Positions 12,451-42,600 of a stretch of DNA of 64,000 nt are shown piece by piece. The first letter of the stretch is position 1, and each line of letters opens with the position of its first letter. A program made the position numbers and the translations under genes. Under the pieces are notes generated by a model. It did no database searches. It was not told where the DNA came from and saw only the letters and a program-made list of their open reading frames with translations. The stretch comes from Raja brachyura (taxonomy: Eukaryota), in contig OY740804.1 in NCBI GenBank assembly GCA_963514005.1, positions 2,294,001-2,358,000 on the forward strand, written 5' to 3'.

Positions 12451-12589
12451 GACTGTTAATGTTGAGGAGGGATTTCAATGCGCTGATCAAAGGATAAACA
12501 CCCTCTTTCCATCTTGTTCCACTAAAGTCATCAACATCTAGAGACCACAACATGGCTCCTCTACAGTTGTTGGTCATCAGCCACTGAGC
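12451..12589 (-). pseudogene. Orphan degenerate chitinase exon 10 (diverged paralogue)
   Basis: After acceptor ttccccag: AQWLMTNNCRGAMLWSLDVDDFSGTRWKEGVYPLISALKSLLNI, homologous to [44 protein letters not shown]. The conserved Cys is replaced by Trp, and there is no canonical donor at the equivalent position. Confidence 0.8.
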
Positions 12590-12821
12590 CTGGGGAAAAG
12601 GAAGGAAAACCATGACTGGAAAGTGTCTTTTGTTGATGAGCCTTTTAGGCAATAAAGCACACGGATATAATATGTAAAAAGCAAAATAATTCAATAAATG
12701 AGAGAGCACAATACTAGTGTGTAAAGCCAACATCCTTAGTGCAACCAAAGACAGTCCATAGACATTCATCGTTGACCTCATTGTCGTGTCGTGTTCTAGT
12801 TGTTGGGAAGGAATTATGGAT

Positions 12822-13217
12822 CCAATCACTGCCTCCCACGGGGCATTGGCTGGAGCCAGCCGCGACCAATCCCAACGCACCGCCGGCTCAGATTGAGTAT
12901 AAACTGTGAAACCAGCGCAGGTGCCAGGGCTGTGGTGGTGACGTGGCGTGGCTGGGACATCCAGTCCGAATGTTGGCCGGAGCGAGACGTGGTGGAGACA
13001 CAAGCAGGATGTGTGGGGCGCCTGGTTGGCCGCTGGCAGCTGGGATGGCGTTGTTCTTGTTAAACGTTAACGGCTGATGCAAGGACACGTTTGGCAGAGG
13101 GTGGAGAGGTCAATGAGGGTCTGGAGACACCGGGAGAAGGTATAAAAGGGGCGAGCAATGGCAGGAGATGGAAGTAAGACCGGCCTCGTCAGCCTGTGTG
13201 GAGACTCCGGAGCTGGT
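12822..13217 (+). promoter_or_regulatory. IgV copy 2 promoter and non-coding exon 1
   Basis: ERSE CCAAT-N9-CCACG at 12822-12840, UPRE-like TGACGTGG at 12939-12946, TATAAAA at 13141-13147, donor at 13216. Confidence 0.65.
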
Positions 13218-13836
13218 AACCACCCCCTGTGGATCCTTCAAGTGTCTGTGAGTGATGGGGGTGGGATTGTCTCTGTTCTCTGTTCCCCAGTTCAGAAGCC
13301 TGATAGCAGAGGGGAAGAAGCTGTTCCTGAGTCTGGTGGTGCGTGCTTTCAAGCTTCTGTACCTTCTGCTAGACAGGACCAGGGAGAAGGAGGAATGACC
13401 GGGGTGGGACAAGTCTTTGATTTTTTTGGTTGTAGATGGAGTCGCTGGTGGGGAGTGTGGTCCGTGTGATGGACTGGGCTCCATCCACAACTCTGCAATT
13501 TCTTGTGGTCTTGGGCTCAGAGCTGTTCCCAAACCAAACTGTGATGCAACCTGACAGTCTGCTCTCCGTGGTGCATCTGTAGAAGCTTGTGAGAGACATT
13601 AGAGACTTGCCGTATTTCCTTGGTCTCCAAGGAGGTAGATGCATTGGTGTGTCTCCTTGGCTGCCACTTTAATGTTGTTGGTCAACGACAGGTCAAAGCA
13701 ACTTAAAATAAACCAGGCAGGAGCTGAAGAGGCTGCACAGCGACATTGCCCAGTGTGGTGGCAGCAGCTTCAGAGAATGTCATCATGAATCCTACTGAGT
13801 TGCAATAATGTGACCCATTGTTTCACCCACAGGAGC

Positions 13837-14346
13837 ATGGGACTGCAGAGATGGATAGGATTCATAGTCCTTGTGGAGATGGTGTGGCAAGTCTCTGGAA
13901 CTGGAACAGGTCCGATCTCCAGAGAATGGGGAGAGGAAGCAAACTTGCCCGGGTGGAACGCACGGGTTCCTCGGCAAGTCAACAAACAAGAAACTCCAGA
14001 ATGCGGTGTTAAGCCAGATTTGACCAAGATGACGGAGATGACGGCACGCAAGGGTGGTTCTGCTACGCTACCCTGTGAAGTACCCACAGGGAAGGATGGA
14101 CCCACGCATTTTGTGGTCACCTGGAGGAAAGGGAAGGGGACACTGGGCGTGTTTACTAAAGGGAAAGGTCCAATCTATCCAGGGGGTGCCGGCCGCTGGA
14201 AGTTCATGAAACCAAACGTGGCTGAGACACGGGATGCCTCGTTGATCGTCACGGGTTTACGCGAGACTGATGCTGGGATGTATTCCTGTGCTTGGTTCAC
14301 TAGCCAAGGGGAATGTAGACTAAATGTCAAGCTGGCAGTGAAGTGA
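13837..14346 (+). CDS. Secreted single Ig V-type domain protein, copy 2 (169 aa; single coding exon)
   Basis: True start MGLQRW at 13837 after acceptor cacccacag (13831-13832). RVPR propeptide end; GGSATLPC, VTWRK, DASLIV, DAGMYSC. Confidence 0.85.
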   Translation: MGLQRWIGFIVLVEMVWQVSGTGTGPISREWGEEANLPGWNARVPRQVNKQETPECGVKPDLTKMTEMTARKGGSATLPCEVPTGKDGPTHFVVTWRKGKGTLGVFTKGKGPIYPGGAGRWKFMKPNVAETRDASLIVTGLRETDAGMYSCAWFTSQGECRLNVKLAVK

Positions 14347-15079
14347 AACCTCCCACTGATTCAGCACAGACCCCTCCAAGTGTCAGGAGCAACAGGCAGT
14401 GGCAGGTCAGCACAAACACAATAACATCCTTCATTATAAACTTGACACACTTAGGCCAACAACAGCATTATATATTGTAGTCACTGAATTCATCATGAGG
14501 GGAATAGAGGGGTGGACACTAAGCATCTTTTACCTGGGGTACGGGAATCAAGAACCAAGGGACATACATTTAAGGTGAGAGGGGCAAGATTTAATAGGAA
14601 CCTGAGGGGCAATATTTTCACTCATGGGGTGGTGGGTTTATGGAACTGTCCGGTGGGGCGGGAACAATAACAATATTTAATACACACTTGGTACAGGGAA
14701 AGGTTTAGGGGGATATGGGGTGAACGCAGTGCAATGGGACAGACCCTGCTTGCACGGGTAAATGTACCATTAATGGAAATAAACTCTGTTGAAGACAGCC
14801 GGTGGTGTGAGTGATTCTTTGTACGCCAGCATTGAAGTTGGGTGTGAACTTTGTTCAACTCTTGCTCACTACGGGCAGCATCGCCGGGTTCTATGAGCTG
14901 TGTCCATTATTGGTCATGACCACACGGGGACGGAACAACATGTGGAAAATCAGGAGTCTGCAGATGTTGCGAACAGGGACAAAAGTAAAGGGGAATGTTT
15001 TTCAGGAACAAAACAGGAACAAAAGTAAAGGCAGATGACACAACAGTAGGCGGGTTTGCAGATAGTGGAGTTGGTTGAT

Positions 15080-15572
15080 TGGCACCAGACTGATTCCTGG
15101 GATGTCAGGACTTTCATATGAGGAAAGATTGGATAGACTCGGTTTGTACTCGATGGAATTTAGAAGATTGAGGGGGGATCTTATAGAAACCTACAAAATT
15201 CTTAAGGGGTTGGACAAGCTAGATGCTGGAAGATTGTTCCCGATGTTGGGGGAGTCCAGAACAAGGGGTCGCAGTCTAAGGATAAGGGGGAATTCCTTTA
15301 GGACCGAAATGAGGAAAACATTCTTTACACAGAGAGTGGTGAGTCTCTGGAATTCTCTGCCACAGAAGGTAGTTGAGGCCAGTTCATTGGCTATATTTAA
15401 GAGGGCGTTAGATGTGGCACTTGTGGCTAAAGGGATCAGGGGGTATGGAGAGAAGGCAGGTACGGGATACTGAGTTGGATGATCAGCCATGATCACATTG
15501 AATGGCGGTGCAGGCTCGAAGGGCCGAATGGCCTACTCCTGCACCTATTTTCTATGTTTCTATGTTTCTATG
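15080..15572 (+). mobile_element. CR1 LINE 3' fragment
   Basis: LSYEERL...RLRGDLIETYKI...FFTQRVV C-terminus and (TTTCTATG)n tail. Confidence 0.85.
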
Positions 15573-16152
15573 GTTGTGAAAAATTGCAGCAGGATATTGA
15601 AATATTGGCCAAGTGGGCTGAGGAACGGTTGATGGAATTTACTACAGAGTAATGTGAGGTGTTGTATTTGGGGGGAGTCCAACATGTGCAGGACCTACAC
15701 AGTGAATGGCCCGGCTCTGGGGAGTGTTGTAGAGCAGAGGGATCTATGAGTGAAGGTGCATGGTTCCTTGAAGATGCAGTCGCAGGTGGGTAGGGTGGTC
15801 AAAAAGGCTTTTAGCACATTGGCCTTCATCAGTCAGAGTATTCAGTATGGAGGTTGGGAGGTCATCTTGCAGCTGCAGAAGATTGGTGAGGCCACATTTA
15901 GATCCCAATGTTTCATAAACAGTTGGACAGGTACATGGATAGGACAGGTTTGGAGGGATATGGAACAAACACAGGCAGGTGAGACTATTGTAGCTGGGGC
16001 ATGTTGGCCAGTGTGGGCAAGTTGGGCTGAAGGGCCTGTTTCCACGCTGTATCACTCTGTGACTACTACACTATGACATTAAATAAATAATGATTATAAA
16101 ATGAAACTCCACATAAATCTCACCTTCTCCTCTGGCTGTATACACAGCACAC

Positions 16153-16242
16153 TCATTGACTGCAGCAGATACAATGAATGTCACACTGGTGGTACCAGGG
16201 CACCTCTGGAAAATGTTCTTCTCAAGATGTGATTGAGAAGAC
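16153..16242 (-). pseudogene. Frameshifted CBM14 remnant, copy 2
   Basis: Near-identical to 11398-11487; ends DIHCICCSQ* and retains the CxCC motif. Confidence 0.6.
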
Positions 16243-16399
16243 GGTGTAACATAGAACATGGAACAGTACAGCACAGGAACAGGCCCTTCGGCCCCCAATG
16301 TCCGTGCTGAACATGATCACCATGGAAAATTGGTTCTGACTGTCTACCCTATCTGTATCTCATACTTTTATAACTTGTGCAAGAGGCCAATGCAAGGGA

Positions 16400-19300
16400 C
16401 CCCATCCACGCTACTAGTTACATCCTCGAAAAATTCCACAAGATTCGTCAGACATGATTTACCTTTCGTAAATCCATGCTGACTTTGTCCAATGATTTCA
16501 CCACTTTCCAAATGTGCTGCTATCCCATCTTTAATAACTGACTCTAGCAGTTTCCCCACTACCGATGTTAGACTAACTGGTCTGTAATTCCCCGTTTTCT
16601 CTCTCCCCCCCTTCTTAAAAAGAGGGGTTACGTTTGCTACCTGCCAATCCTCAGGAACTACTCCAGAATCTAAAGAGTTTTGAAAGATTATCACTAATGC
16701 ATCCACTATTTCCAGAGCTATTTCCTTAAGTACTCTGGGATGCAGCCTATCTGGCCCTGGGGATTTATCGGCCTTTAATCCATTCAATTTACCCAACACC
16801 ACTTCCCGACTAACCTGGATTTCACTCAAGTACTCCTTTGACCCGCGGTCCCCTGCTATTTCCGGCAGATTATTTATGTCTTCCTTAGTGAAGACGGAAC
16901 CAAAGTAGTTATTCAATTGGTCAGCCATATCCTTGTTCCCCATGATCAACTCACCTGTTTCTGACTGCAAGGGACCTACATTTGTTTTAACTAATCTCTT
17001 TCTCTTCACATATCTGTAAAAACTTTTGCAGTCAGTTTTTATGTTCCCTGCCAGTTTTCTTTCATAATCTATTTTTCCTTTCCTAATCAAGCCCTTTGTC
17101 CTTCTCTGCTGGTCTCTGAATTTCTCCCAGTCCTCTGGTATGCTGCTTTTTCTGGCTACTTTGTACGCATCATCCTTTGCTTTGATACTATCCCTGATTT
17201 CCCTTGTTATCCACGGATGCACTACCTTCCCTGATCTATTCTTTTGCCAAATTGGGATGAACAATTTTTGTAGTTCATCCATGCAGTCTTTAAATGTCTT
17301 CCATTGTGTATCCACCGTCAACCCTTTTAGAATTGATTGCCAGTCAATATTGGCCAATTCACGTCTCATACCCTCAAAGTTACCTTTCCTTAAGTTCAGA
17401 ACCATTGTTTCTGAATTAACAATGTCACTCTTCATCCTAATGAAGAACTCGACCATATTATGGTCACTCTTGCCCAAGGGGGCACGCACAATAAGACTCC
17501 TAACTAACCCTTCCTCATTACTCAATACCCAGTCTAAAATAGCCTGCTCTCTCGTTGGTTCCTCTACATGTTGATTTAGATAACTATCCCTCATACTTTC
17601 CAAAAAATCCTCTTCCTCAGCGCCTGCCAATTTGATTCACCCAATCTATATGTGGATTGAAGTCACCCATTATAACTGTTTTGCCTTTGTCGCACGCATT
17701 TCTAATTTCCTGTTTTATACCATCCCCAACTTCACTACTACTGTTAGGTGGCCTGCACACAACTCCCACTAGCGTTTTCTGCCCCTTATTGTTTCGCAGC
17801 TCTACCCATACCGATTCCACATGCTCCAAGCTAATGTCCTTCCTTTCCATTGCGTTAATCTCCTCTCTAACCAGCAACGCTACCCCACCTCCTTTTCCTT
17901 TCTCTCTATCCCTCCTGAATATTGAATATCCCTGGATGTTCAGCTCCCAGCCTTGGTCACCCTGGAGCCATGTCTCCGTGATCCCAACTATATCATACTC
18001 ATTAATAGCTATCTGCACGTTCAACTCATCCACCTTATTACGAATACTCCTTGCATTGAGACACAAAGCCTTCAGACTTGTTTTTACATCCCTTTTTTTC
18101 CCTATATCGTTGGTGCCAATATGCACCACGACAACTGGCTGTTCACCCTCCCCCTCCAGAATGTTCTGCAGCCGTTCAGTAACATCCCTGACCTTTGCAG
18201 CAGGGAGGCAACATACCATCCTGGAGTCTCTTTTGCGTCCGCAGAAACGCCTATCTATTCCCCTGACAATTGAATCCCCTATTACAATAGCCCTTCCCCT
18301 CTTTTTTCCCCCATCATGTGCTGCAGAGCCACCCATGGTGCCATGAACGTGGCTGCTGCTGCATTCCCCTGATGAGCCATCTCCCTCAACAGTATCCAAA
18401 ATGGTAAACCTGTTGAGTAGGGAGATGACCGCAGGGGACTCCGGCACCACCTGCCTACTGCTTTGCTGGCTATTGGCCACCCGCTCCCTTTCTGTCCTCT
18501 TACCTTTTACCTGTGGCATGACCAACTTGCTGTATGTGCTGTCCACAACTTTCTCTGCGTCGTGGATGCTCCAGTATGAATCCAGCCGCAGCTCCAATCG
18601 TTCAATGCTTTTTTAATTTTTTTAAATTTCAAAATAGACTTTATTAAAGTAATTAATATATACAGCACATCAACCGTGCGAAAAATCCATCCGACATTTT
18701 CGGAGGCACTATAAATTGTTCCATACAGTCTATACACATTTTTTCAAATTTCGCGAATCGATCCCCCACCCGTGCCACTCATGTGGCCACTGGCATGGGT
18801 TATCTTCCTTTATTTTGAGGGGCGTCCCCACCATACCGTGCCCCCCATGTCCAGCAGCGGAAGGACCTTAGACTGTGGCCCTCCCCCACCGAGCCTTGGC
18901 GTTGGCTGCACAGGGAGCTTCAGTGCGTCCCTCAGCACGTACTCCTGCAGTCTGCAGTGGGCCAGTCGGCAACATTCCCCGACGGACATCTCGCTCTGCT
19001 GGGTGGTGAACAAAGCTCGGGCAGACCAGAGAGCGTCTTTCACCGAGTTGATAACCCTCCAGCAGCACTTGATATCAGTCTCTGAATGTGTCCCTGGGAA
19101 CAGTCCGTAAATCACAGAGTCCTCTGTGACGGAGCTGTTTGGAATAAAGCGTACCAGGGACCCTTGCATTTTTCTCCAGACTCTTTGGGCAAATCCACAC
19201 TCTGCAAAGAGGTGGGCAACCGTCTCCACTCCATAGCAGCCGTCCCGAGGGCAGCATGCAATGCGGTCTGCCAGGAGCTGCAGCTGGACACACTTCCTGC

Positions 19301-19620
19301 AAACGTAGTCACCAGGGACACCGACCATATCCCTGATCTCCCACATGTTGCAGGCTGAGCAAGGCACGGGACCAATCTCCACTGACACCTTACTCTATTA
19401 AATATATATATTTTTTAAATTTATTTTTTATTAAACACAAAACTTTATTCTTTAAACTTTACTAATAAATACTAATAAATATTGAATCCCTAACACCCAG
19501 AATCCTTAGCTCCCAGAATCCTTAAACCTGTAGGCAGAAATGTAGAAATGTAAATCCCGGGTTGCAGCCAATCAGCTGCTTCCTCTGGTCCTCTTCATCA
19601 GCCTCACGTGCGGCACTTTA
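16400..19620 (-). mobile_element. CR1-clade LINE, internally deleted and 3'-truncated
   Basis: ORF1 Cys-rich start (CSACNMW...CRKC) and SGNH esterase (IGDSIVRG, HIGTND) fused by deletion to the ORF2 APE (CLNARS, ITETW, MGDFN, SDH) and RT start (KSPGPD, NYRPVSLTS, QHGF). Confidence 0.9.
18609..19258 (-). mobile_element. 5'-truncated L1/Tx1-type LINE inserted into CR1 ORF1
   Basis: C-terminal CCHC motif (CPRDGC..ETVAHLFAEC), A-rich tail at ~18609-18630, TSD CAATGC (18603-18608 and 19259-19264). Confidence 0.8.
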
Positions 19621-21209
19621 TCAAAGGCTTCCGAAGGGGACTTCCGAACCAGGGTCACAGTTTAAGAATAAGGGGTTAGGCCATTTCGGACTGAGATGAG
19701 GAAAGAAATAACCACCCAGAGAGTTCTGAATCTGTGGAATTCTCAGACACAGAAGGCAGTGGAGGCCAATTCACTGGATGGTTTCAAGAGAGAGTTAGAT
19801 TTAGCTCTTGGGGCTAACGGAATCAAGGGATATGAGCAAAAAGCAGGAACGGGGCACTGATTTTGGATGATCAGCCATGATCATATTGAATGGCGGTGCT
19901 GGCTCGAAGGGCCAAATGGATTACTCCTCGGCCTATTTTCTATGTTTCTGTGACTCGCAGGAGCCACAACGAGGATGTGTGGGGCACGTTGTCAACTGTT
20001 GGGACATCTTTGATGACCACAATCTCGTTAGTAATTAACGGCGGCTGACTAGCGACCACACAGAGACAATTCTGGGCACCACTCTGTGAACACCAATGTT
20101 TGCTTGACACCAGTTTGTATTGGGGTAGCATAGCTGTAGAGTTACTGCCTCACAGTGCCAGACACCCGGGTTCGATTATGACTACGGGTGCTGACTACTC
20201 GTGACAGCGGCCAGAATCACCAGAAGAGAAATACCAATTACTAGAGGACGTCAGACAGACAGTTCGAGTAGATCATCAGAACAATTTTCCAAGGGTGGGA
20301 ATGTAAAGGACTAGTGGGCAGAGCTTTAAGGTGAGAGGGGCAAAGTTTAAATGAGATGTGTGCGGCAAGTTTTTTTTACACGGAGAGTGATGGGGCCCTG
20401 GAACGCGCTGCCAGGGGCGGTGGTGGAGACAGATACGATAGTGGTGTTTAAGAGGCTTTTAGATTGGCACATGGATATGTAGGGAATGGAGGGATACGGG
20501 TCACGTGCAGGCAGAGGGGATTAGTTTAACCTGTCTGCAGGTGAATGGTGGAATCTGGGAGAAATTGAAAACCATATAGAGAGAGTAAAGTTGGATTAGA
20601 TTAGTGTAGGATTAGTGTAAATGGATGGCTGATGGATGGCATGGACACAAGGGTTCTGTGTCTATCTGAAAACAAGATTGTGCAAAAGCTTGAAAGGTAA
20701 GTAACTGCATGAGACTGTGACATTCATACTGATGTGATCCTTCCCTCTGGAAGGCGACTCCGGACTGTCAAAGCTCAACAGCTTTTTTTCCCCATGAGCA
20801 GTAGCTCTACTCAGCACCCAGAAATCTGTAGCCTCCTTGTGCTCTGGTATTCTATGTCATTCTTCACATGTTTAAATTGTAATGTTTCATTCCTAATTGT
20901 TAACTGCATATTGTGTTGTTACTTGCGAGCAAAGCACCGAGTCAAATTCTTGTATATATACATACTTGGCTAATTACAGTTATTCAATTCAATTCATAGC
21001 AACAGAAATTGCTGACTTTAATTGATAAACTGTTTATCAGGATGAGGGGAATTTTGAAGGATGAGGGGGTGGGGACCTCATAGAAACTTACCGATTAGTT
21101 TAAAGACCTGGGCAGAGTGGATGTGGAGAGGATGTTGCCATTATTTACGGAGTCCAGGACCAGAGGGCACAGTCTCAGAATAAAAGTAAGTACCTTTAGG
21201 AAGGAGATG

Positions 21210-22090
21210 TGACCTGGACAGGTTGTGTGAGTGGGCAGATGCGTGGCAGATGCAGTATAATATAGATAAATGTGAGGTTATCCACTTTGGCGGCAAAAAA
21301 AGGGGGCAGATTATTAACTCAATGGGGTTAGGTTAGGTAAGAGGGAGGTGCAGCGAGACATGGGCGTCCTTGTACACCGGTCACTGAAGGTTGGCGTGCA
21401 GGTACAGCAGGCAGTGAAGAAAGCTAATGGAATGTTGGCCTTCATAGCAAGAGGATTTCAGTATAGGAGTAAAGAGGTTCTTCTGCAGTTGTGTAGGGCT
21501 CTGGTGAGACCACATCTGGAGTATTGTGTACAGTTTTGGTCTCCTAATTTGAGGAAGGACATCCTTGTGATTGAGGCAGTGCAGTGTAGGTTCACGAGAC
21601 TGATCACTGGGATGGCGGGACTGTCATATGAGGAAAGATTGAAAAGACTAGGCTTGTATTCACTTGAGTTTAGAAGGATGATGGGGAATCTTATAGAAAC
21701 ATATAAAATTATAAAAGGACTGGACAAGCTAGATGCAGGAAAATGTTCCCAATGTTGGACGAGTCCAGAACCAGGGGCCACAGTCTTAGAATAAAGGGGA
21801 AGCCATTTGAGATTGAGGTGAGAAAAAACGTTTTCACCCTGAGAGTTGAGAATTTGTGGGATTCCCTGCCACAGAGGCCAGTGGAGGCCAAGTCACTGGA
21901 TTGATTTAAGAGAGAGTTAGCTAGAGCTCTAGGGGCTAGTGGAGTCAAGGTATATGGGGAGAAGGCAGGCACGGGTTAATTGATTGGGGATGATCAGCCA
22001 TGATCACAATGAAACGTGGTGCTGGCTTGAAGGGCTGAATGGCCTCCTCCTGCACCTATTTTCTACGTTTCTATGTTACTATGTTTCTAT
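21210..22090 (+). mobile_element. CR1 LINE 3' fragment
   Basis: LVRPHLEYCVQFWSP motif and CR1 3' UTR. Confidence 0.85.
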
Positions 22091-22359
22091 GAGATGAGGA
22101 GGAATTTCCTTAGTCAGAGGGTGGTGAATCTGTGGAAGTCATTGCCACAGACGGCCGTGGAGGCCAAGTCATTGAGTATTTTGAAAGTGGAAATTGACAG
22201 CTTGATTAGTGCGGATGTCAGAGATTATGGGGAGGAGGCAGGAGAATGGGGTTGAGAGGGAGAGACAGATCAGCCATGTAGACTTGATGGGGCAAATGGC
22301 CTAATTCTGATCCTGGAACTGATGTACATGAACAGACACAAAGTACGCTGTTATATGCT

Positions 22360-22455
22360 TAAAATTATGACTTTATTTTATTGTTTTGACAGTAACAATT
22401 ATCTTTGTGATGAACAATCGATGGTGGAAGTTCCGAATTGTTTGTCGACCACAGT
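22360..22455 (-). other. Probable non-coding terminal (3' UTR) exon of the chitinase gene with poly(A) signals
   Basis: Strong donor AAG|GTGAGA 9 nt after the stop codon (exon end 25800). Acceptor tctttctgttgcag at 22456-22457 in non-repetitive sequence, followed by two overlapping AATAAA (22372-22382). Confidence 0.55.
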
Positions 22456-23194
22456 CTGCAACAGAAAGATCATCTTAGATTTCTCAAAACCAGGAAGGAT
22501 GTCTACACATCAGATCAAAAACAATATCTTAAGTACATATTTATATTTAAGTTCTAGTTTAGTTTATTATTGTCACGTGTACCGAGGTGCAGTGAAAAGT
22601 TTAATGTGTGCGTGCTATCCTGTCAGCGGAAAGACTACACATGATTACAGTCGAGCCGCCCACAGTGTACAGATACAGGATGAAGGGGTTAACGTTCTGT
22701 GCGAGGTAAAGTCCAGTAAAGTCCAATCAGGGATAGTCCAAAGAGTGATGGGGATACACAGCAGGGAGACAGGCCGTTCAGTGCATACCTGACCCTCACT
22801 CATTTCCCCAACATTCCCATCAGTTCTCCCCAGATTCCAACCCTCACCTACACACAAGGTGCAATTTACAGAGGGCCTGTCAACCTACAACCCTGCGCGA
22901 CTTTGGAATGTGGGAGGAAACCGGAGCTCCTGGAGAAAAACCCACGCAGTCACAGGAGAACGTGCAAACTCCGTCACCCAGAGAGTTGTGAATCTGTGGA
23001 ATTCTCTGCCGCAGAAGGCAGTGGAGGACAATTCACTGGATACTTTCATGGGAGAGTTGGAAATAGCTATTTGGGCCAGGGGTCCAGTGCTGCCGGAGGG
23101 CACCCCTGTAAAAAAAACACCAAAATAATGGGGAATTTTAATGAGCAGGTGTGTGGTCGAGGTAACCTGATTAAAAGAGGGGGAAGGGAAAGAC

Positions 23195-23938
23195 CCTTCA
23201 CTACTGATGGGTTTTCAATCACTACTGATGGGTCTTCCCTATAGGGGGGTTGGGGGGTGGAGCACTAGGACCCAGCAGAATCGTCACTACTGATGGGTCT
23301 TTCCTATAGGAATGTGGGTTTGGGGGGGCACTAGGACCCAGCAGAGTCATCATCAAAATTATAGAGCTCTCTTTGATCTTTGGTCATCACCACTGATGGG
23401 TCTTCCCTATGGAGGGGAGGAGGGGGGCACTAGGACCCAGCAGAGTCATCACCACTGATGGGTCTTCCCTATAGGAGTGTGGGTTTGGGGGGGCATTAGG
23501 ACCAAGCAGAGTCATCACCACTGATGGGTCTTCCCTATAGAGGGGAGGGGGGGCACTAGGACCCAGCAGAGTCATCACCCCTGATGGGTCTTCCCTAAAG
23601 AGGGGAGGGGGGGCACTAGGACCCAGCAGAGTCATCACCACTGATGGGTCTTCCCTATAGAGGGGAGGGGAGGGCACTAGGACCCAGCAGAGTCATCACC
23701 CCTGATGGGTCTTCCCTATAGGAGTGTGGGTTTGGGGGGGCATTAGGACCCAGCAGAGTCATCACCACTGATGGGTCTTCCCTATAGAGGGGAGGGGGGG
23801 CACTAGGACCCAGCAGAGTCATCACCCCTGATAGGTCTTCCCTATAGAGGGGAGGGGGGGGCACTAGGACCCAGCAGAGTCATCACTACTGATCGGTATT
23901 CCCTATAGGGGAGTGGGAGGGGGGGGGGGGGGCACTAG
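23195..23938. repeat. G-rich ~60-bp minisatellite, ~11 units
   Basis: Unit GCACTAGGACCCAGCAGAGTCATCACCACTGATGGGTCTTCCCTATAG plus a variable G-rich spacer. Confidence 0.95.
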
Positions 23939-25317
23939 ATGGCCATTTAGGCAGTGGGTGTTGTTGCTGCTCCTGGTGGTGGCCATCTCCGCCTCATGAG
24001 GGTGAGCGTATGTCGATGTAGCAACGTTACGAAATTTTGAGATTTAAAAAAATCAAGTCTGCAATTTATCCCATCAGATAAAGCATAAAAATAAGTTTAA
24101 TTTGACACCTAATTCATTTTCATATCTTCAGTATTAAAAAGGTTATGGCCATTTTCATACTCTGAAATTAGCATCTTGTTCCCTATTGCTTTTCCATCCA
24201 CTTAACACAAAAACTGTGATTAAGGACAGTCAAAAGCCCATAACTTTTTTTTTTAATTAAGAGAGCTGAGTGAATTTTTCAGTTTTTATAGATTGAAGCA
24301 TTCAGAAACAAATATGAAACACTCTTACTTGGATGACCTGAAATTAAAACATATAATTAGTTAGTTACCTAATTGTAGCTAATTACAAAATTCAATTACT
24401 AGATCTAAACATCTATCCATTTCTTAAGAAAAGGTTAACATTTAAAAAAAAGCCTAAGTGTCCAGATAACATTCATACAAGAATTCACAATATAACATGA
24501 TTTTTTAATCTCATTGTTATGAATTTATAGGTCAAATGGAAGGAATTTAGTGTTTAATTCCCGTAAATTAATGGCCATTTAAATCAACTTGCGAGTGGGT
24601 TTTTGTGGAACGCGATGGATTGGAACATTGCGGTTTGCGGTGAATTTAACCCCCAGTCGGCAGGAAAAATACTGCCAGTTCGTATATTTTTAAAGACACC
24701 TTTTCGCAACATGAAATTTTGATTAAAGGCTTCCTAAGAAGCACATTTTTATGTAAAAATAAACCGTGTATTTTCTTTTGCCCCTACGTAAGATCTGTCC
24801 CGTTGTCAGCGTTCACGGATTTAGGAGATGATTTTTAATTCACTCTAGCAATTAAATTATTCAGCGCATTTTAAAAATACCTCCATAAAACAAATGTCGG
24901 AGCGATTTCTCTTCAGCAATTAAATCCCCTGAGATTAATCGATTTGAATGATCTGGAGTAAAGGGCATTTAAAACCCACCCCCCTCTCAAAGGCACCAAA
25001 GTCGCGCACATGGGCAGCGAAAGAACAGCAGCGCCGCTGAAGGTAAGCTTTGTAACATACATAGTCAGTGTGTGTCAGTGGGTGAGAGTGTGTGTGTGGG
25101 CCGAATAGCCTACTCCCGTACCTATTTTTTTCTAACTCCACACATAGACAGCTCCAGTAGTCAGGATTGAACCCGTATCTCTGGAGCTGCGAGGCAGAGG
25201 CTCGACCCGCTGCACGGCTACATTCTCTGGAGCATTTTATGGAATGGTCGCCTGTTTCCTGGCCTGTTGGTTCCCTTGCCCACCGCCACCACCACAGTCT
25301 TCACCCAGAAAAGAGGT

Positions 25318-25610
25318 GGCACGGTGGTGCAGCGGCAGACACACCACTTGCGTGTCTTACAACGCCATAGACCCGGGTTCCATCCTGACCTCGGGTGCTG
25401 TCTGCACAGAGTTTACACGTTCTCACTGTGACCGCGTGGGTTTTCTCCGGGTGCTCCGGTTTCCTCCCACATTCCAAAATCATACAGGTTTGTCAGTTAA
25501 TTGGCTTCTGTAAATTGTAAACTGTCCCTAGTGTGTTGGATAGTGCTAGTGATCGCTAGTTGGTGTGGACTCGATGGGCCGAAAGGCCTGTTTTCGCGCT
25601 GTATCTCTAT
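25318..25610 (+). mobile_element. tRNA-derived HE1/V-SINE-like SINE (representative; others at ~1430, 12060, 30230, 31250, 33050, 34887, 36680, 40245, 41160)
   Basis: A-box GGTGGTGCAGCGG, B-box GGTTCCATCC, central GGGTTTTCTCCGGGTGCTCCGGTTTCCTCCCAC domain and CR1-like tail. Confidence 0.75.
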
Positions 25611-25808
25611 AGACTAGAGGTGAAAATACAATGACCAATGAACGTTTTGGGTGGCCAATCACATACTACTCTTGTGTTTCTTACCCCACGAGCATTAGGG
25701 TCAAGTAGGGTCAGTATGGACTTGTTGGGCTGAAGGGCTGGTTCAGAGATGTATGACTCGATGCCCAGTATAGAGTGTGAGGTAGGTAAGCAGTCTCACC
25801 TTCTGCCA

Positions 25809-28800
25809 TTAAGGCCAGTTGCAGCATTTACAGGATGAGTCGAAGACCAATCCTGCGGCACAGCTCTTCACGTAGGTCCGACCATCATCGCACTGGTAGA
25901 ACTTGTTCTTGTTCTTGGGATCGGGGAAGGTACCATTCGCTTTGCCCTGACAGAAGCCACTGCCTCCACCACCGCTGCCTCCACCACCGCTAGGAGCATC
26001 AGTAGGTGGGACCGCCGGCTTCAATGTTGTCTTGGATGGGACGCAAGCTGCAGAGAAACACAGTTTGTTATGTTCTCCTAAAGTCTTAGGAGAATTAGGC
26101 GATTTAGCCCATTGACTTACCCCACCATTCAATCATGGTTGATCTATCCCTCCCTCTCAACCCCATTCTCCTGCCTTCTCCCCATAAACCCTGACACCCG
26201 AACTAATCAAGAATCTGTCCATCACCGCCTTAGAACGCAGGTCCACAAAGTATGAATATCCCAGTCAATGGGATTATGCCACTGAACCCCCCTCTCACCA
26301 ACTCCAGAGGGATCCTGACCTCACATCTACCCCAGATGCTGGTCTATAAAAAGAGACACAATGTGCTGGAGTAACTCAGTTGCTTGTTCTCTATACCCAC
26401 CACTCCATGTGTGTAAAACGTAGCTATCACACCTAGTCTTACCACTATCTGCCTCCACCACCCCCGGTAGCGTGTTCCAGGCACCCACCACCCTCTGTGT
26501 GAAAGACTGGTCCTGCACATCTCCATTACCTGCAGAGATGCCAAGGCCAGAGTGCAGAGTGTTGATGAGGGGGTAGGGTCCCTGGTGACAGAAGGCACCA
26601 GAGAAGTCATCCAGAGCCAGATCCCAGACCATAGCTCCTCCATAGTTGTTCTTCTTCAGCCACTCAACCTGGAAGACACGGTTCACATCTTTACACCAGC
26701 ATCCCTCAGTCAATAATGGTGTCTATGATGCGCCGGAGAAAGCTTTTTATCGGGATTCATCACAACACGGTTTGGGAATGGCTCCATCCAAAACCCGCAG
26801 GAAATTGCAGGGAGTTGCTGACGCAGCCCAGACCATCACGTAAACCAACCTCCCTTCCATTGACTCCATCTACACCTCGCGTTGCCTCAGCAAGGCCACC
26901 AGCATAATCGAGGACCAGTCTCATCCCAGCACCAGAGAAATAAAACAGAAATTCCAAGTTTCCCCGATGTGAATCCTAACCCCTTTCTCCTGCTTTCTCC
27001 CCATAACCCCTGATACCTGAACACCATGAGTTTATGGTGAGCTGGAAATATTTTGTAGAATGTAATGATTCCAAGGATTTTGAAGCATAATTCTGGAGCT
27101 CACTGTTGGAAACTCTGCAGTAGATATTGAGATAAACGAGACCACGATGGCTCACGTGGAAAGGGTGGAACTTCGATGGTCAGATGTACCTTGTCTCCGA
27201 AGCTCTTGACGTTGTCATAGCCGACCCATATTCCATTCTTGAAGGCGTACGGGGTGTCCTGTGGGGCGTTCCATTCGGCGGTGGCACCATTCAGGAACCC
27301 GCAGATCTGTTCAGAGAAGGAGATGTTAGGGACCAATCTTGTCGAAGTGGAAAAAAATCATGAGAGGAACCGATCAGGTAGATGCAAAGTGTCTCTTGTC
27401 CAGTCGGGGAATCGACAACCAGAGGACATAAGGTGAGGGAGAAAGATTTAATAGGAATGGTGCTGGTTCGAAAGGCCGAATGGCCTACTCCTGCACCTAT
27501 TGTCTATTAAACCTGAGGGGTAACCATTTGACACCGAGGGTGGTGGGTGTATGGAACAGATGGGTGGAGATAGTGACAAAAGCTGGAGGGGAACAGGAGA
27601 CAAAATAGTGTCAGATACTGATAGAAGAGGAACAGAGAGATGCGCAAAGAGAGGAGGAAAGAGATATGTGAAGAGAAGGGAGAAAGACATGAAAGAAGGA
27701 TAGAAAGAGGAGAGGAGGGAAAGATATATAAAGAGAGGAAAGAGAGATATGTCCAGAAAGAGGAGGAGAGAGATGTAAAGTGCGAGGGAGGGATGTGGAG
27801 AGAAGGAGATAGCGGGGAGGGCAAATAGGAAGGGGAGGATAGAAGGGAAATGGGGATCTCTGAGAGAAGAGGAGGGGAACGGAGAACGTGGGTGTGCGAT
27901 GTTTCGGATGGAGATCCTTCCTCATGTGTCCATCTATGTTGTGTGTGGTTATTCAGTATTGGATTGGAAGATAACATTGAGTAAAGGGCCACGCGGTTGG
28001 ATTAGTCGGTAGGTACAGTACCTCATAGTAGGCCAGGAAGCCGGCTTGGCGGGTGAATTTGCCGGCTGGTCCAGCACCTCCTGCTGGGGCACCCACGGCC
28101 GTGCTGGACGAGGTCAGTCTGAAAGTGTGTCCGTAGGTGGGGAAGCCCACATTCAACTTGTCCACTGGAGCCCCCTTGCTCTTCCAGTAGTTCATGGCAT
28201 ATTCCTGCAGGGACACAGTTGGCATCAAAGGACTTTAGGCTCATGTTTAACATTAGGTTTATTATTGTCACGTGTACCGAGGCACAGTGAAAAGCTTCCA
28301 AACAGATCAGATAATACCGTACATAAATACAATCAAGTCAAACTCAGGTACAATAGGTAGAACAAAGGGGAAGATACAGAGTGCAGAATATAGTTCTCAG
28401 CATCGTAGCGCATCAGTTCCACAGACAAAGTCCAATGTCCACAATGGGGTAGAGGTGAATCGGACAGTACCCTAGCTTAAGGAAGGACCGTTCAGAAGCC
28501 TGATAGCAGAGGGCAGGGAGCTGTTCCTGAGTCTGGTGGTGCTCGCTTTCAAGCTTCTGTACCTTCTGCTAGACAGGACCAGGGAGAAGGAGGAATGACC
28601 GGGGTGGGACAAGTCTTTGATTCTGTCGGTTGCTTTTCTGAGGCAGCGTGAAGTGTAGATGGAGTCAATGGTGGGGAGTGGGGTCTGTGTGATGGACTGG
28701 GCTCCATCCACAACTCTCTGCAATTTCTTGTGGTCTTGGGCTCAGAGCTGTTCCCAAGCCTAGTTGTGATGCAACCCCACTGTCTGCTCTCCATGGTGTT

Positions 28801-31800
28801 TGGAACAGTTATATGGACTCGGCTAAATAGGTTTATAAATTCGGGGAGAGGAAATGAAAAAGTTGAGCAGGATTTATTTTTCTTGAGCACTTACCACATT
28901 GAAGTGGGTGTTGGTGTAATCATTGTCATTAGGCAGGGCATAGAGGGGGCTGTTCTCTCCAGTAACGTGGCTCCAGGGACCATAGAAATCGTAGGTCATC
29001 ACGTTGAAGAAATCAACTACCCTGCAAGAGAGGAGACCGGGTCACCCTGATACTCCATGCCCCAAATTAACATCAGAACACAGAACAGTACAACACGTGA
29101 ACAGGCCCTTCTACCCACAATGTCCGTGTCAAACATGACGGCAAGATAAACTCATCTCCTCTGTCTGCACGTGATCCGTATCCCTCCATTCCCTGCATAT
29201 CCACGCGCCTATCCACAAGCCTCTTAAACAACACTATCGTATCTGCCTCCATCACCACCCCTGGCAGCGCATTCCAGGCATCCACCACCCTCTGTGTGTA
29301 AAAAAAACATGCACATCTCCTTTAAACTTGAACATGGTGCCAAGTCCATCACTTATCTACATGCACATCACCAACATCCCTCCATGCCCAGCATTATCAT
29401 GTGCCCATCTAAAAGTATTTTAAATGCACTAATGTATCTACTTCAACCACCACCCCAGCAGGTTCTGGCTGTCTACCCTATCTATGCCTCTAGTGATTTA
29501 TAAACTTCTATCAAGTCTCTCCTCAACCTCTGATGTTCCAGAGGAAACAATGCAAGTTTGTCCAACCTCTCCCTGTAGCTAATCCCCTCTAATCCAGGCA
29601 GCGTTCTGGTAAATCTCCTGTGCACCGTCTCCAAAGCCTCCACATCCTTCCTGTAATGGAGACAACCAGACCTGCACGCAATGCTCTAAATACCTCCTGG
29701 CTAAAGACCGACAGAGCTGCAAGTTGGCTTCCTGACTCTCACGCTCAATGCCCCGACCAATGAAGGCATTGAATGCATTAGGGTTGTGGATGGATCTCAA
29801 TCAACGTGCTGGAAGCTCCCACCATTGGAATTCTGGAGCGATGAAAAACTAGTTCAAATACGACGTCAAACTGGCTAAACTCCCGAGATGAAAGCCCACA
29901 GGAAAAGTTGGGTTTCTTTGTGTGTAGAAGGACACTCACTTGCCGAGCTGAGGAACCTCGTAGCCAGTATCAATGTTGCTCATCCCACCAGCAACGGCAG
30001 CTGAGAGCAGCAGGCGTGGCTGTCCTGTGCTTTTCCCCTCGGCCTCGAAGGCAGCCATCAGCTCCTGTGGGTCAGAGAGATCGAGGGCTCCTTTAGCAAG
30101 AGGTCAAGTCTAGTCTTAGCAAGGGTCCCGACCCGAAACGTCATCTATACTTTTTCCCCAGAGATGCTGCCTGACCCGCAGTGTTACTCCAACACTTTGT
30201 GTCAATTTCAAGTTTGGTTTAGTTTGGTTCAGAGATGCAGCGTGGAAACAGGCCCTTCGGCCCATCGAGTCCACGCCGACCAGCGATTACCCTTTCACTC
30301 TAGTTATATCCTACATACTTGGGACAATTTACTGAAGCCAATTAACCTACAAACCCACACACATTTGGAGTGCGGGAGGAAATCAGAGCACCTGAGGTCA
30401 CGGGGCGAACGTACAAACTCCGTACAGACAGCATCCATGGTCAGGATTGAACCCGCGTCTCTGGCGCTGTGAGGCAGCAACTCTACCCCTGCACCACCGT
30501 ATCGCCCAAGAGTGGGGAAGAAGCTTTTTAATCCAAACCTCAAAATGGTGCTTGGTTCAAATTTTATTAAATTCTTAATTTCTGAATTCTTAAATTCCTT
30601 TGTGTAATCTGTGAAAATCTGTCCTTTGTGATCTTGACAATAAGTTGCATTTATTGGATAAATTTTCAAGTCATAGAGTTATGCAGCGTGACAACAGACC
30701 CTTTGGCCCAACCTGCCCGCACCGACCAATGTGTCCCATCTACACTAGTCCCACAAAGTGCTGGAGTAACTCAGCGGGTCAGGCAGCATCTGAGGAGATA
30801 AAGGATGGGTTTGGCCTGCGTTTGGCCCATTTATTTTAACGAAACCCATAGTGAGATGTACTTGACCGCACCTGAGCCAGGACAGTGTAGAGATGCTTGT
30901 CAACAGGGGGACTTCCTCGAGATCCAGGATATTCCCAATCGATATCCAGACCGTCAAAGCCGTACCCTCTCAGGAAGGCGATGACTGACTTGATGAAGAT
31001 TTGCCGAGTTCCTGATGAGGCGACCATCGCGGTGAATCTGCAGGTGGGGTGAATGTGGGGAGAGGAGTTAGAAATGAAATGTGCCGGAGACACGAGGAAC
31101 GGCCAGTGACCCAGTGACTCTGCTGTTATATCCTGTCATGTACAGATTCATCCAAGCTTTTGTTAAATGCTCAAGTGGTTAAAGAATTACTCCTTTCTCC
31201 TGTTGTCATCTGAAGTTTCATGTGCAATTATTCTTTTTGAAAATAGCGTTTAGTTTAGTTCAGAGATACAGCGCAGAAACAGGCCCTTCGGCCCACCCAG
31301 TCCGCACCGACCAGCGATCCCCACACACTAACACTATCCTGCACACACAAGGGACAATTTACATTTATACCAAGCCAATAAACCTACAAATGTGTACGTC
31401 TTTGGAGTGTGGGAGCAAACTGAAGATCTCTGAGAAAACCTAGGCAGTCACAGGGAGAACGTACCAACTCCACACAGACAGCACCCGTAGTCAGGATCCA
31501 ACCCGGGTCTCCAGAGTTCCACTAGTACCACTACGCCACACACTATTGAAAGCATTCTTTCTGAAAATTATATTCTTTTACTTTTTGGCAAGCAATATCC
31601 TATATTGTTCAAATTACAATTTGCAAACTGCTCTGTTTAATAATACTCCTGAAACAGTTCACTGTAAAATTATCCCCTCGATATTTATCACTTGGGATAT
31701 CATTACTAGAGCCAGGATGTTTAAGCACTAAAAAATTCTGAAATAGGCAGGCAAAAAGGCATAATAAAATTATTTAAAAAAGCATGAGAAAGGCATTTAT

Positions 31801-38099: not shown

Positions 38100-38408
38100 G
38101 TGGCCAGAGCGAGACGTGGTGGAGACATAAGCATAATGTGTGTGGCGCCTGGTTGGCCGCTGGCAGCTGGGATGACGTTGTTCTTGTTAAACTTTAACGG
38201 CTGATGCAAGGACGCGTTTGGCAGAGGGTGGAGAGGTCGCGGCTGACTCCGTCCAATGTTCCGTGGGAGGCAGTGATTGGTTGAAAGTACGTGAGTGCAG
38301 GCAATGAAGCTCAGGAGAAGCCGGGAGTTGGTATAAAAGGAGCGAGCGATGGCAGGAGATGTGAACAAGACCGGTCTCGTCACCCTGTGTGGAGACTCCG
38401 GAGCTGGT
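38100..38408 (+). promoter_or_regulatory. IgV copy 3 promoter and non-coding exon 1
   Basis: ERSE (CGTGG-N9-ATTGG) at 38262-38280, extra CCAAT at ~38253, TATAAAA at 38332-38338, donor CTG|GTAACC at 38407. The block is conserved in all three copies. Confidence 0.7.
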
Positions 38409-38641
38409 AACCACCCTTGTGGATCCTTCAAGTATCTGTGAGTGATGGGGGTGGGATTGTCTCTGTTCTCTGTTCCCTCAGTTCAGAAGCCTGATAGCAG
38501 AGGGGAAGAAGCTGTTCCTGAGTCTGGTGGTGCGCGCTTTCAGGCTTCTGTACCTTCTGCTAGACAGGACCAGGGAGAAGGAGGAATGACCGGGGTGGGA
38601 CAAGTGATGGAGTCATAGAGTCATACAGCGAGACCTTCGGC

Positions 38642-38778
38642 CCAACTTGCCCGCGCCCACCAACTTGCCCGCGCCCACCAACTTGCCCGCGCCCACCAAC
38701 TTGCCCGCGCCCACCAACTTGCCCGCGCCCACCAACTTGCCCGCGCCCACCAACTTGCCCGCGCCCACCAACTTGCCC
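38642..38778. repeat. 18-bp tandem repeat (CCAACTTGCCCGCGCCCA) x~7.5
   Basis: Perfect array in the intron of IgV copy 3. Confidence 0.95.
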
Positions 38779-39086
38779 CATCAAAACTAGACCCACCTGC
38801 CTGCGTTTGGCCCTTACCCCTCTAATCCTGTCCTATCAATGTACCTGTCTAACTGTTTCTTAATCATTGTGATAGTACCTGCCTCAACTACATCTTCCGG
38901 CAGCTCGTTCCAAACACCCTCCACCCTTTATGTAAAACAGTCACCCCTCAGTTTCCCATTAAATCTTTCCCCCCCTCACCTTAAACAGATGTCCTCGGGT
39001 TCTCGATTCCCCAACTCTGGGCGGGTTCAGAGAATGTCATCATGAATCCTACTGAGTTGCAATAAGGTTGTTTCACCCACAGGAAC

Positions 39087-39614
39087 ATGGGACTGCAGAG
39101 ATGGATAGGATTCTTGGTCCTTGTGGAGATGGTGTGGCAAGTCTCTGGAACTGGAACAGGTTCGATCTCCAGAGAATGGGGAGAGGAAGCAAACTTGCCC
39201 GGGTGGAACGTACGGACGCCTCGGCAAGTCAGCGATGAACAGCTTCCAAGATGCACGGACAAGCCAGGTTATGCCGGTCATCGCCCTTTAATCATTAATC
39301 TGCAGGTGGTCGTTGTGTCTCCGGGTGGTAGTATTACGCTGCCCTGTAAAATATCCAAGCATTACAGTAAACCTAAACTCGTCACATGGAAAAAAGGCAA
39401 TGTTGCCATTGCCACGTATCACGGTGTGTTTTCAGTGGGATATCAGGGATCTTATCCCCACTGGAAGTTCGCGAATGACAACGTGTTCAGACGTCGGGAC
39501 GCCTCGTTGGTACTGTGGGGGGTACAAGAGAAAGATGCCGGGACGTATACCTGCATTTGGTCCACTTCTCATCATGGAAAATGTCATGTATTGACCTGGC
39601 TGAAAATAGAGTGA
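39087..39614 (+). CDS. Secreted single Ig V-type domain protein, copy 3 (175 aa; single coding exon)
   Basis: MGLQRW leader, RTPR propeptide end; GGSITLPC, VTWKK, DASLVL, DAGTYTC. Acceptor at 39081-39082. Confidence 0.85.
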   Translation: MGLQRWIGFLVLVEMVWQVSGTGTGSISREWGEEANLPGWNVRTPRQVSDEQLPRCTDKPGYAGHRPLIINLQVVVVSPGGSITLPCKISKHYSKPKLVTWKKGNVAIATYHGVFSVGYQGSYPHWKFANDNVFRRRDASLVLWGVQEKDAGTYTCIWSTSHHGKCHVLTWLKIE

Positions 39615-42600
39615 AACCTCCCATAGATTCAGCGGGGACCATCCCAGGAACAGTAGCAAAGTTTACCTAAACCCGCATGTTCTACCGTTTGATAAACACT
39701 TTAACTCCCCCTCCCATTCCCACACTGACCTTTCTGCCCTGGGCCGCATGAGGCCCGAGTGCAAATTGGAGGGACAGCACCTCAAATTTCACTTGGGCAG
39801 CTTACAACCCAGTGGTTTGAATATTGGCTTCTCTAACGTCAAGTAAACCTTGCTTCTGTCTCTCTCTGTCCCTCCCCCACCCTAGTCCTCCAACCAGTCT
39901 GACTGCCTGATTACAATTTTTCTTTTAATACTTCATTGTCACCTTCCCCCAGCTAACAATGATCAATTCTAGATTTTCCTTGAACATCGCCTCCTTTGAT
40001 GTATAGTGTTCACACCTTACCTTTTCATATCTCTATGTCTCCCTCTCCCCTGACTCGCAGTCTGAAGAAGGGTCTTGACCGCAACGTAACCCATTCCTTC
40101 TATCCAGAGTTGCTGTCAGTCCCACAGAGTTACTCCAGCATTTTGTGTCTGTCTTTCGTGTAAACCAGCATCTGCAGTGCCTTCCTACCCAAAAGCAAAG
40201 CCTAGTTCAGTTTCGGTTAGTTTAGTCCTGAGGTGCAACAGGGAAACAGGCCCTTCAGCCCACCGGGTCTGTGGATACCAATGGTCAGCCCATGCAATAG
40301 TTCTATCCCACACTCCAGAGACAATTTACACAGGCCAATTAACTGACAAACATGCACGTCTGGGATGTGAGAGGAAACCAGAGCACCCGGAGGAAACCCA
40401 CACGGTCACAGTGAGAACGTTCAAACTCTGTACGGACAGCGCCCGTAGTCAGTATTGAACCTGAGTCTCTGGCGCTGAGAGGCAGTAAATCTACCGCAGC
40501 GCCACCGTGCCGCCAAGAAGTCGGGGGCAGGTCAGCACAAACACAATAACAGCCGTTGTCATAAACTTGACACACTGAGGCCAAGCCCAGATTTGGAACC
40601 GGGACGTAGGTTTAAGGTGATAGGGCCAAGGTTTAAAAGGACTAAGGGGCAACATTTACAGTTAGAGGATGGTGGGTGTATGGAACGAGCTGCCAGAGGA
40701 GGTAGTTGAGGCTGGTAGTACAATAACATTTAATAGACTGATGGGTGGGTAGATGGACAGGAATGGTTTTATGGGGATGTGGGCCAAATGTAGTGAAATG
40801 GGATGAGCTTAAATGGGGTATATGGGTCTGCATGGGCGTTGGGCTGAAGGGCCTGTTTCCATGCTGTATGACTCTATGACACTAAGTAGGGATTAGTAAA
40901 GGTATAAAGATGAGCAGCATGGAGGGTTTGAGCGTGGATCGCATGCAGTGAGGAGAACTGACCCTGTCTGCACCAGTAAATGTACGTCTAATGGAAATAA
41001 ACTCTCTTCTACCTGCCCTGAAGACAGCCGGTGTGAGTGATTCTTTGTACCCCAGCATTGAGTTGGGTGTGAACTTTGTGCAACTCCTGCTCACTACGGG
41101 CAACATCGCCAGATTAAGTGTCATGGAGTTGCCTTTAAATTAGTTTAGTTTAGTTCTGTTTTGCTTAGAGATACAGCGTGGAAACAGGCCCTTCGGCCCA
41201 CCGAGTCCAATCCGACCAGTGATCACCCGTACACTAGTTCTAACCTACACACTAGGGACAATTTACTGAAGCCAATTAACCTGCAAAATCTGCACGTCAC
41301 GGTCACAGGGAGAACGTACAAACACCGTACAGACAGTACCTGTAGTCACAATCGAAGGTGGGTCTCTCGCGCTGTAAGGCAGCAACTCTACCGCTGCGCC
41401 ACTGTGCCACCTGTGCATTGCCCTCGTGCATTGTTAGGGCTGCTGATTAGCGTCCAGTTTTGACCCTCATTGGGAGTCAATTGTGGTTGAGTCAAGGAGC
41501 ATTCTTACCTCCGTATGGAGTCTGGTCTTCCAGCTAAAGACCCACACCACCCTGGCCACACTCGCTTATCGCTACTACCAAAGGGAAGGTACAGGAGAAC
41601 CTGAGATCCGAGACCTCCAGGTTCAAGAGCAGCTTCCTCCCAGCAAGCATAAGGTTGTTGAACCAGCCTGCACAACCCCAACCACAACCCTACGCCACCC
41701 AGCTGAACCACGATGGACATTGCACCACTGGTGATGCCCCACGTACTTTGTCGTGTACTATCATGGTCTGAGACCTTATTGTGTACTTATGGTGTAAGTA
41801 TAAAATCATAATAGGCCAGGGTAGACAGTGGAGGGCTGCCACTACAGAGACACCCATAGACCTGATAGAATTATATCAAGTTATGAGAGGCATAGATTGG
41901 GGAGATAACCAGAACCAATTTCCCAAAGGCTTTGGAAAGGGTACAGAAGAGGTTTCCCAGAATGATGCCAGGATTGGAGGTTGTTAGTTTAAGGACAGGT
42001 TGGATAGTCCTGGATTGAATTCTCTAGAACTTCAGATGTTGAGGGGAGACCTTTTTAGTTGAGTTTAGAGATACAGGGTGGAAACAGGCCCTTCGACCCT
42101 CTGGGTCCGTGCTGACCAGCGATCCCCGCACATTAACACCATCCTTCACCCACTTGAAAGAGTCAAAGTCATTATAAAGTCTTGTAGGTTACAAAATGGA
42201 CTCTGCTTATAGATTTAGAAGTACTCAAGGTCAGAAGCAAACTGCTTGAATCTACAGAGATAAGGAATGCTCCTTCCTTGATCATAACCATATATGGACA
42301 ATAGCTTTTCTGAAATCAGAAGAAACAATAGAGCTTTAATATTACCATGTATGGACATGGTGGGACTCTGTGATCAGATAGATAGCCAATTGGCACAGTG
42401 AAGTGAAGTCAAAAATAAAGAACACAACACAGAGTAGACAGAAATTCAACATAAAACATCCCTTCACAGCAGGATCAAAATTTCCCACCGTGAGGGAAGG
42501 CACCAAAGTCAGTCTCTTCCCGATGCCCCCACTGTTCTCCCGTGGTCGGGGCCTCCCCGTGCCCTCCGCTGTTGCCGCTCCGGGCGGCCCGATGTTCAGG

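Follow-up and report, generated by a model that had tools for sequence, protein, structure and literature searches.

In the 64,000-nt stretch of Raja brachyura DNA analysed here (the window) we observed three copies of a gene with a V-type immunoglobulin (Ig) domain, all with open frames: copy 1 at 9527-10060 (minus strand), copy 2 at 13837-14346 (plus) and copy 3 at 39087-39614 (plus). Why should the coding part of copy 3 differ from that of copy 1 far more than the non-coding DNA beside it? An earlier note, made from the letters alone, had proposed diversifying selection on the V domain and/or gene conversion that homogenizes the flanks while V cassettes are exchanged.

The observations behind this proposal were sound in part. 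For the 39 codons from 39306 we reproduced exactly the reported count against copy 1 (17 identical, 18 replacement and 3 synonymous codons and one AGT/TCT Ser switch). The promoter and intron of the two copies are nearly identical, as had been stated, with 29 differences in 817 aligned bases (3.5%; 171 gap columns), and the coding part is indeed more diverged, with ∼128 of 369 bases of the mature domain differing in a codon alignment. The border of the diverged part had to be moved: identity drops at ∼39231, where the pro-segment ends, ahead of the V domain itself (39306). What did not stand was the reading of 18:3 as a signature of selection. The ratio is no dN/dS, as two or three bases are changed in 8 of the 18 replacement codons; replacement sites outnumber silent sites by about 3:1. 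For the 39 codons NG86 gave ω of 1.03 (κ = 1) or 1.17 (κ = 2), and maximum likelihood (ML) estimates for the mature domain were dN = 0.53, dS = 0.46 and ω = 1.15. With ω of ∼1 and silent divergence about as high as replacement divergence, which the note itself had named as the mark of old paralogues, this pair does not show selection; given these dN and dS values, the two V domains are old paralogues. There is a lesson of method here: a diverged exon beside near-identical flanks does not by itself show selection.

A search of the Raja brachyura genome gave 16 family matches; 15 of them lie in a stretch of 190 kb, the other 25 Mb away on the same contig. A TATA box, a short first exon followed by an intron, and a 3′ block that contains AATAAA are common to most copies. 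The statement that no copy has a stop holds for the window and fails genome-wide: two of the 16 copies (L003, L009) have internal stops, and in L014 and L016 the reading frame continues into unrelated sequence. The latter two (G000:C24, ∼2,250,200 and ∼2,217,100) are C-type copies that lost their final codons, the frame entering repeat DNA; no 3′ polyA block was seen within the 1.5 kb examined, and the read-through adds a hydrophobic C-terminal stretch that could be a new membrane anchor. Four tandem units of ∼31 kb each contain a head-to-head pair of A- and B-type genes. The units diverge at about 1.8-1.9% of aligned bases (0.4% between the last two), and in part such near-identical units could be co-assembled haplotypes. 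The mature domain is identical in the three intact A-type copies.

Other copies and repeats deserve mention. In the lone distant copy, L010 (G000:C24, ∼27,486,300), the leader is more diverged, 7 codons are deleted and the mature part, with a net charge of -16, is strongly acidic; this copy seems to escape conversion. L002 and L004 (G000:C24, 2,365,600-2,376,600) are inverted duplicates with identical mature domains, and the L002 locus is without the TATA box and first-exon donor that most other copies have. At window positions 15027-20977 the flanks of a C-type gene are kept and the gene is absent, with a LINE-like element (16368-19346) in between. A piece at 28490-28798, 85-97% like the start of the family intron and with no gene adjoining it, is probably a repeat element residing in that intron. 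Diverged retroelements at 48604-62100 (65-75% alike), with reverse-transcriptase-like and tyrosine-recombinase-like ORFs, are presumably DIRS-like. Tandem repeats were seen at 38640-38780 (a 20-mer, ∼7 times, in the copy 3 intron), 23218-23927 and 46534-47060.

The named homologues (175-221 aa) are uncharacterized skate proteins (seven from Leucoraja, one from Rhinoraja) and one electric-ray protein labelled nectin-1-like; in the searches run, full-length homologues came from skates and one electric ray only. No further homologues were found by an alignment search at similar length with 3937 candidates; a search for longer forms gave one partial hit, which is weak evidence, and the ESM Atlas search gave generic V-set clusters only. 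The representative search returned mostly multi-Ig proteins, with full-length matches only to P0003 and P0088 among the best 150 of 2401; because multi-Ig proteins dominated it, weakly scoring members from sharks could have been missed. No account of the family was found in the open-access literature, and it appears to be undescribed.

Table 1. Features of the three window copies and of the tandem array (window coordinates)
Feature	Position	Strand	Details
Tandem unit (∼31 kb), fourth and last	1..31500	.	End coordinate approximate
Copy 1 (A-type)	9377..10645	-	TATA 10645-10639, CDS 10060-9527, AATAAA 9382-9377
Copy 2 (B-type)	13141..14783	+	TATA 13141, CDS 13837-14346, AATAAA 14778-14783; belongs to young trio
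Copy 3 promoter	38253..38338	+	CCAAT 38253, reverse CCAAT 38276, TATAAAA 38332-38338; putative function
Copy 3 exon 1 region, probably non-coding	38339..38437	+	Donor GT 38438
Copy 3 intron	38438..39082	+	20-mer tandem expansion and repeat-element fragment
Copy 3 codons 1-48	39087..39230	+	Predicted signal peptide (∼1-21, hydropathy), pro-segment ending PR-QV
Copy 3 variable N-terminal arm, codons 49-73	39231..39305	+	Invariant Cys56
Copy 3 V-type Ig domain, codons 74-175 and stop	39306..39614	+	C87, W101, D150, C156, extra C166
Codons 96-98	39372..39380	+	Align to PVR VSQ stretch; selected sites 95, 97, 98
Codons 109-118	39411..39440	+	Align to AX6G lock and two following residues; selected 118, weaker 113, 115-117
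Codons 160-162	39564..39572	+	Align to T(F/Y)P key; 161 and 162 selected
Copy 3 3′ block	40936..41110	+	AATAAA 40996-41001; 2-10% divergent among V lineages

The promoter of copy 3 (Table 1) has 88-95% identity to most paralogue promoters, exon 1 is contained in the RefSeq models of the Leucoraja homologues, and the repeat-element fragment of the intron recurs at 91-100% in paralogues whose V types differ widely. An upstream ATG at 38349 was considered as the true start and rejected, as it is not conserved (in frame in copy 3, out of frame in copy 2, deleted in copy 1). The ORF has 175 codons, with leader and V domain in one open frame. Codons 1-48 are the homogenized part of the CDS, with a fourfold-site divergence of 0.04. 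Judging from the leader, the copy 3 product would be secreted and cleaved; hydropathy analysis places a Glu within the h-region of the predicted signal peptide. The PR-Q motif that closes the pro-segment is conserved otherwise but lost in two Leucoraja proteins, P0001 (the orthologue of copy 3) and P0162. In the arm, Cys56 is invariant in 15 of 15 aligned sequences and would pair with Cys166, and codons 66, 68 and 69 have site posteriors >0.9 (model without multi-hit). Because of repeat insertions the AATAAA of copy 3 sits 1.3 kb past the stop.

The mature domain matched the Pfam V-set profile at 34.4 bits (cut-off 26). Invariant residues and the structure model (pLDDT 81-93 across residues 71-170) together show the Ig V-set features: the B- and F-strand Cys, the C-strand Trp, D-x-G-x-Y-x-C and the C′ and C″ strands. 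From skates through electric ray 19 columns are invariant, four cysteines among them. The possibility of a V segment of a rearranging antigen receptor, with leader intron and recombination signal, was rejected, as the leader and a complete V with G strand and stop share one frame. The nearest solved relatives, both by Foldseek and by sequence, are PVR/nectins, with identity of only 21-28%.

A genome search with the electric-ray member returned the 16 copies first and then four weaker V exons; of these, the three translated bear nectin motifs and the one tested matches nectin-1. We take these next hits as true nectins (profile match 97.5%). L037, L038 and L039 are V exons on separate contigs (G000:C1034, C51 and C882), and the two translated among them, nectin-type exons that closely resemble each other, both keep lock and key, which suggests a nectin expansion in this genome. 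Nectins carry (V/I)(S/T)Q as their third motif, and it is visible in the PVR alignment. The lock AX6G and the key T(Y/F)P are defined in the part of PMC10486284 available to us. Both AX6G and TYP are retained in the electric-ray (Narcine) member; AX6G is present in the C-type, has G for A in the B-type and is absent in copy 3, and the TFP/TYP key is absent from all 10 skate genes listed. Nectins, as the accessible part of PMC7286890 describes them, have a V-C2-C2 ectodomain, a transmembrane segment and a cytoplasmic tail. Here the stop comes directly after strand G, with no C2 domain or transmembrane segment, and six of the seven proteins tested had no hydrophobic 19-mer >1.5, the exception being the read-through L014. 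Because the nectin architecture fails, we call the genes nectin-derived or nectin-like, not nectins.

At the level of the family positive selection is real. Site models were run on nine distinct intact genes (L003, with its stops, was left out); our own codon models agreed on M0 with IQ-TREE (lnL -2686.34 vs -2686.36, ω = 1.37). M2a and M8 placed ∼30% of codons in a class with ω near 3. M8 against M8a, a comparison of the kind suggested along with the original count, gave 2ΔlnL of 37.6, and 23.4 when double and triple changes were allowed; the signal was robust to restriction to 78 strict columns, to removal of young copies and to F1X4. In the B-type trio, which includes copy 2, we observed 18-23 replacement vs 0-1 silent changes (Fisher P 0.006-0.036), where ∼5 replacements are expected at the 1.9% unit background; ω was 11.8 (P = 3e-4), and third positions made up 2 of the 31 variable bases (P = 5e-4). 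No mature-domain change was seen among the intact copies of A-type and D-type duplicates; therefore, selection is episodic and lineage-specific. The claim of diversifying selection thus stands for the young B-type copies and in the site models, and falls for the copy 3/copy 1 pair and for the orthologues of copy 3 (see below). The 14 codons aligned to nectin motifs had posterior ω above the rest of the V domain (P ∼0.001; ∼0.01 against non-core residues; the test was chosen post hoc), and four of the eight top V sites fall within them. Selection falls preferentially where nectins bear the lock-and-key motifs.

What could such proteins do? Our first choice, which we hold at a little under an even chance, is that they act in a contest between host and pathogens, as soluble binders or decoys, on the surface by which nectins bind partners and viruses enter. 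Pheromone and venom-peptide families, on the other hand, typically combine a constant leader with a mature part that varies, and close behind ranks the possibility, which we hold somewhat less strongly, that the same evolutionary mechanism serves a reproductive or chemical-signal protein (of seminal or clasper-gland fluid, egg coat or skin mucus). The restriction of full-length homologues to skates and an electric ray would agree with such a role, as would the action of nectins in spermatogenesis mentioned in the accessible part of PMC7286890; still, pathogen pressure would account just as well for episodic, lineage-restricted bursts on the binding face.

One may ask whether relaxed constraint on the V domain of old paralogues with converted flanks would suffice, with no positive selection at all. 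Pairwise ω of ∼1 between the old lineages and among the copy 3 orthologues, the stops in two copies and a null model that puts ∼85-90% of codons at ω = 1 all speak for it. So does the inflation of the likelihood-ratio test (LRT) by rate variation: the uncorrected LRT was matched in none of 35 null simulations with multi-hit alone and in 3 of 58 with codon-wide rate variation added. For the seven old lineages gene-wide ω was 1.26 after correction, not significantly above 1 (P = 0.14). Yet the LRT survives multi-hit plus rate variation (M2a vs M1a, P = 4e-4 with nine genes and 0.003 with seven lineages), and the ω and third-position deficit of the B-type trio, as well as the columns kept invariant from skates to electric ray, are against this explanation, which we consider unlikely. 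A class of codons with ω >1 is present, weaker in the old lineages and absent in the copy 3 orthologues.

In these orthologues, from four related organisms, we counted 23 replacement vs 8 silent changes, with ω of 0.9-1.0, which is not significant (changes were hand-classified among 40 of 59 rows, the Ser switch was left out of 23:8, and the X14 list may be incomplete). Among the rows listed all replacements lie within codons 49-135, with codons 103-105 struck repeatedly. A single fixed set of hypervariable sites for paralogues and orthologues was considered and gained no support, as no enrichment was seen at paralogue-selected sites (P 0.19-0.30). Copy 3 alone shows constraint mixed with fast change and no significant excess of replacements. 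Between window positions 39312 and 39490 the orthologues often differ by adjacent double changes, among them the AGT/TCT Ser switch, which also separates related organisms; multi-nucleotide mutation may be frequent there. A 4-base insertion in the V domain at window position 39447, carried by one related-organism contig (run X3) at a depth of 18 of 99, may represent a frameshift allele.

The contrast between V domain and leader is seen at silent sites. In pooled cluster lineages 94 of 328 fourfold sites differ in the mature domain vs 14 of 339 in the leader (P = 4e-19, with pairs not independent; codons sharing the first two bases were counted, and pairs with L003 and L010 were left out), i.e. 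silent sites of the V domain are seven times more diverged, and near 39231 identity falls from >90% to ∼55-80%. In the mature-domain tree copy 3 (L001) pairs with Leucoraja P0001 (99/99), L003 with P0004 (95/87) and L014 with P0007 (94/91); trees and models omit the near-identical duplicates L004-L006, L009, L011 and L016. Leader codon 21 is Gly in nine of nine cluster genes tested and Ala in seven of seven Leucoraja proteins, with Ala kept in the distant L010; this cross-species evidence is at protein level and consists mainly of one fixed site. Since the V lineages pair with Leucoraja orthologues while the leader marker is species-wide, conversion homogenizes the 5′ side. The proposal of converted flanks thus gained support, both from the fourfold contrast and from a leader marker particular to each species across V lineages that precede the split; the pattern of the 5′ module is one of concerted evolution. 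The 3′ side is probably homogenized by conversion as well, its block (2-10%) being much less divergent than V silent sites. We have here a divergence island: flanks are closer within the species than the silent sites of the island, and the island groups with orthologues (the cross-species part at protein level).

The other half of the proposal, the exchange of V cassettes, was not supported. A PHI-type test found no recombination within the mature domain (P 0.23-0.86), so the cassettes are not being shuffled; the V lineages persist as cross-species orthologues, and it is the V region that resists exchange. A swapping of cassettes between loci, or piecewise shuffling as in avian Ig gene conversion, might explain the sharp identity step at ∼39231, a V domain bracketed by shared sequence, and L002 and L004, identical in the mature domain and inverted in orientation; the PHI-type result, a longest identical run between lineages of 26 bases and the absence of a promoterless V pool among 18 tblastn places in 264 kb make it very improbable. 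Local hypermutation of the V domain was rejected too. Silent changes among copy 3 orthologues (1-4 of ∼91 sites) are in line with those of the 3′ flank (1-3 of 57 bases), and dS in the B-type trio is ∼0.01; because of this the V mutation rate is not considered raised. That the copies are recent duplicates whose V domains diverged without any conversion, through selection or local hypermutation alone, is least credible of all, for although flank divergence of ∼3.5% and several adjacent double changes among orthologues would agree with it, the sevenfold silent-site contrast, V lineages older than the Leucoraja split and the unraised silent rates do not.

Taken as a whole, we consider it probable that this is a nectin-like secreted V family with converted flanks and a partly selected mature domain, for which a role as binder is proposed. 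Non-allelic gene conversion would keep the flanks alike; conversions reaching the mature domain would at first be purged by selection and, once identity had become low, would be blocked, and a divergence island would result. Every duplicate would retain the common module for expression and secretion, and its binding face would change in bursts. More tentatively, one could see here a batoid germline repertoire built from the first domain of a nectin, i.e. secreted, disulfide-reinforced single-V binders or decoys against nectin-using viruses or receptors, with a promoter and leader module maintained by conversion and an arms race rewriting the former lock-and-key face. Such a batoid decoy or recognition system is not described as such in the literature found. 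If the decoy reading were true, cartilaginous-fish immunity would gain a new arm, a soluble one, and a small single-domain scaffold of natural origin would be added. The batoid family is apparently unstudied; as its selected sites are located, the ligand is testable with a few small recombinant proteins. The locus also sets conversion against selection with internal controls, since neighbour genes of the same unit stay unchanged while one diversifies.

NITR, MDIR/CD300-like proteins, amphioxus VCBP and shark VNAR are innate V-domain families. The skate genes resemble them as clustered, diversified germline V domains; unlike them, the skate family has no transmembrane, chitin-binding or constant domain and is closest to nectins, and none of these families was matched in the searches run. 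PMC6795676 covers NITR and IgNAR, and the part of it available holds nothing resembling the skate family. Domain 1 of nectin/PVR (CD155) gave the best sequence and fold matches, and the electric-ray member has both motifs; the family genes differ from nectins in having one V, a pro-segment, an extra cysteine pair and a single coding exon, and in the skate copies the TFP key is lost and the lock varies. Conotoxins and salamander courtship pheromones likewise combine near-invariant signal/pro regions and UTRs with a fast mature part and fixed cysteines; the skate family, however, has an Ig V fold of unrelated sequence, with no sign of venom or pheromone function. The mechanism, a divergence island under conversion, is already known: a divergence peak under gene conversion is described for exon 5 of the human red/green opsins, with the model of Teshima and Innan, in the accessible part of the review PMC3924837. 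To the extent that this part describes it, the likeness is that the selected coding part groups with its orthologues, and the non-coding flanks resemble one another within a species; the skate family differs in having ∼7 old lineages, in that the island is the whole 380-bp mature domain and starts inside an exon, and in that replacement continues in one lineage.
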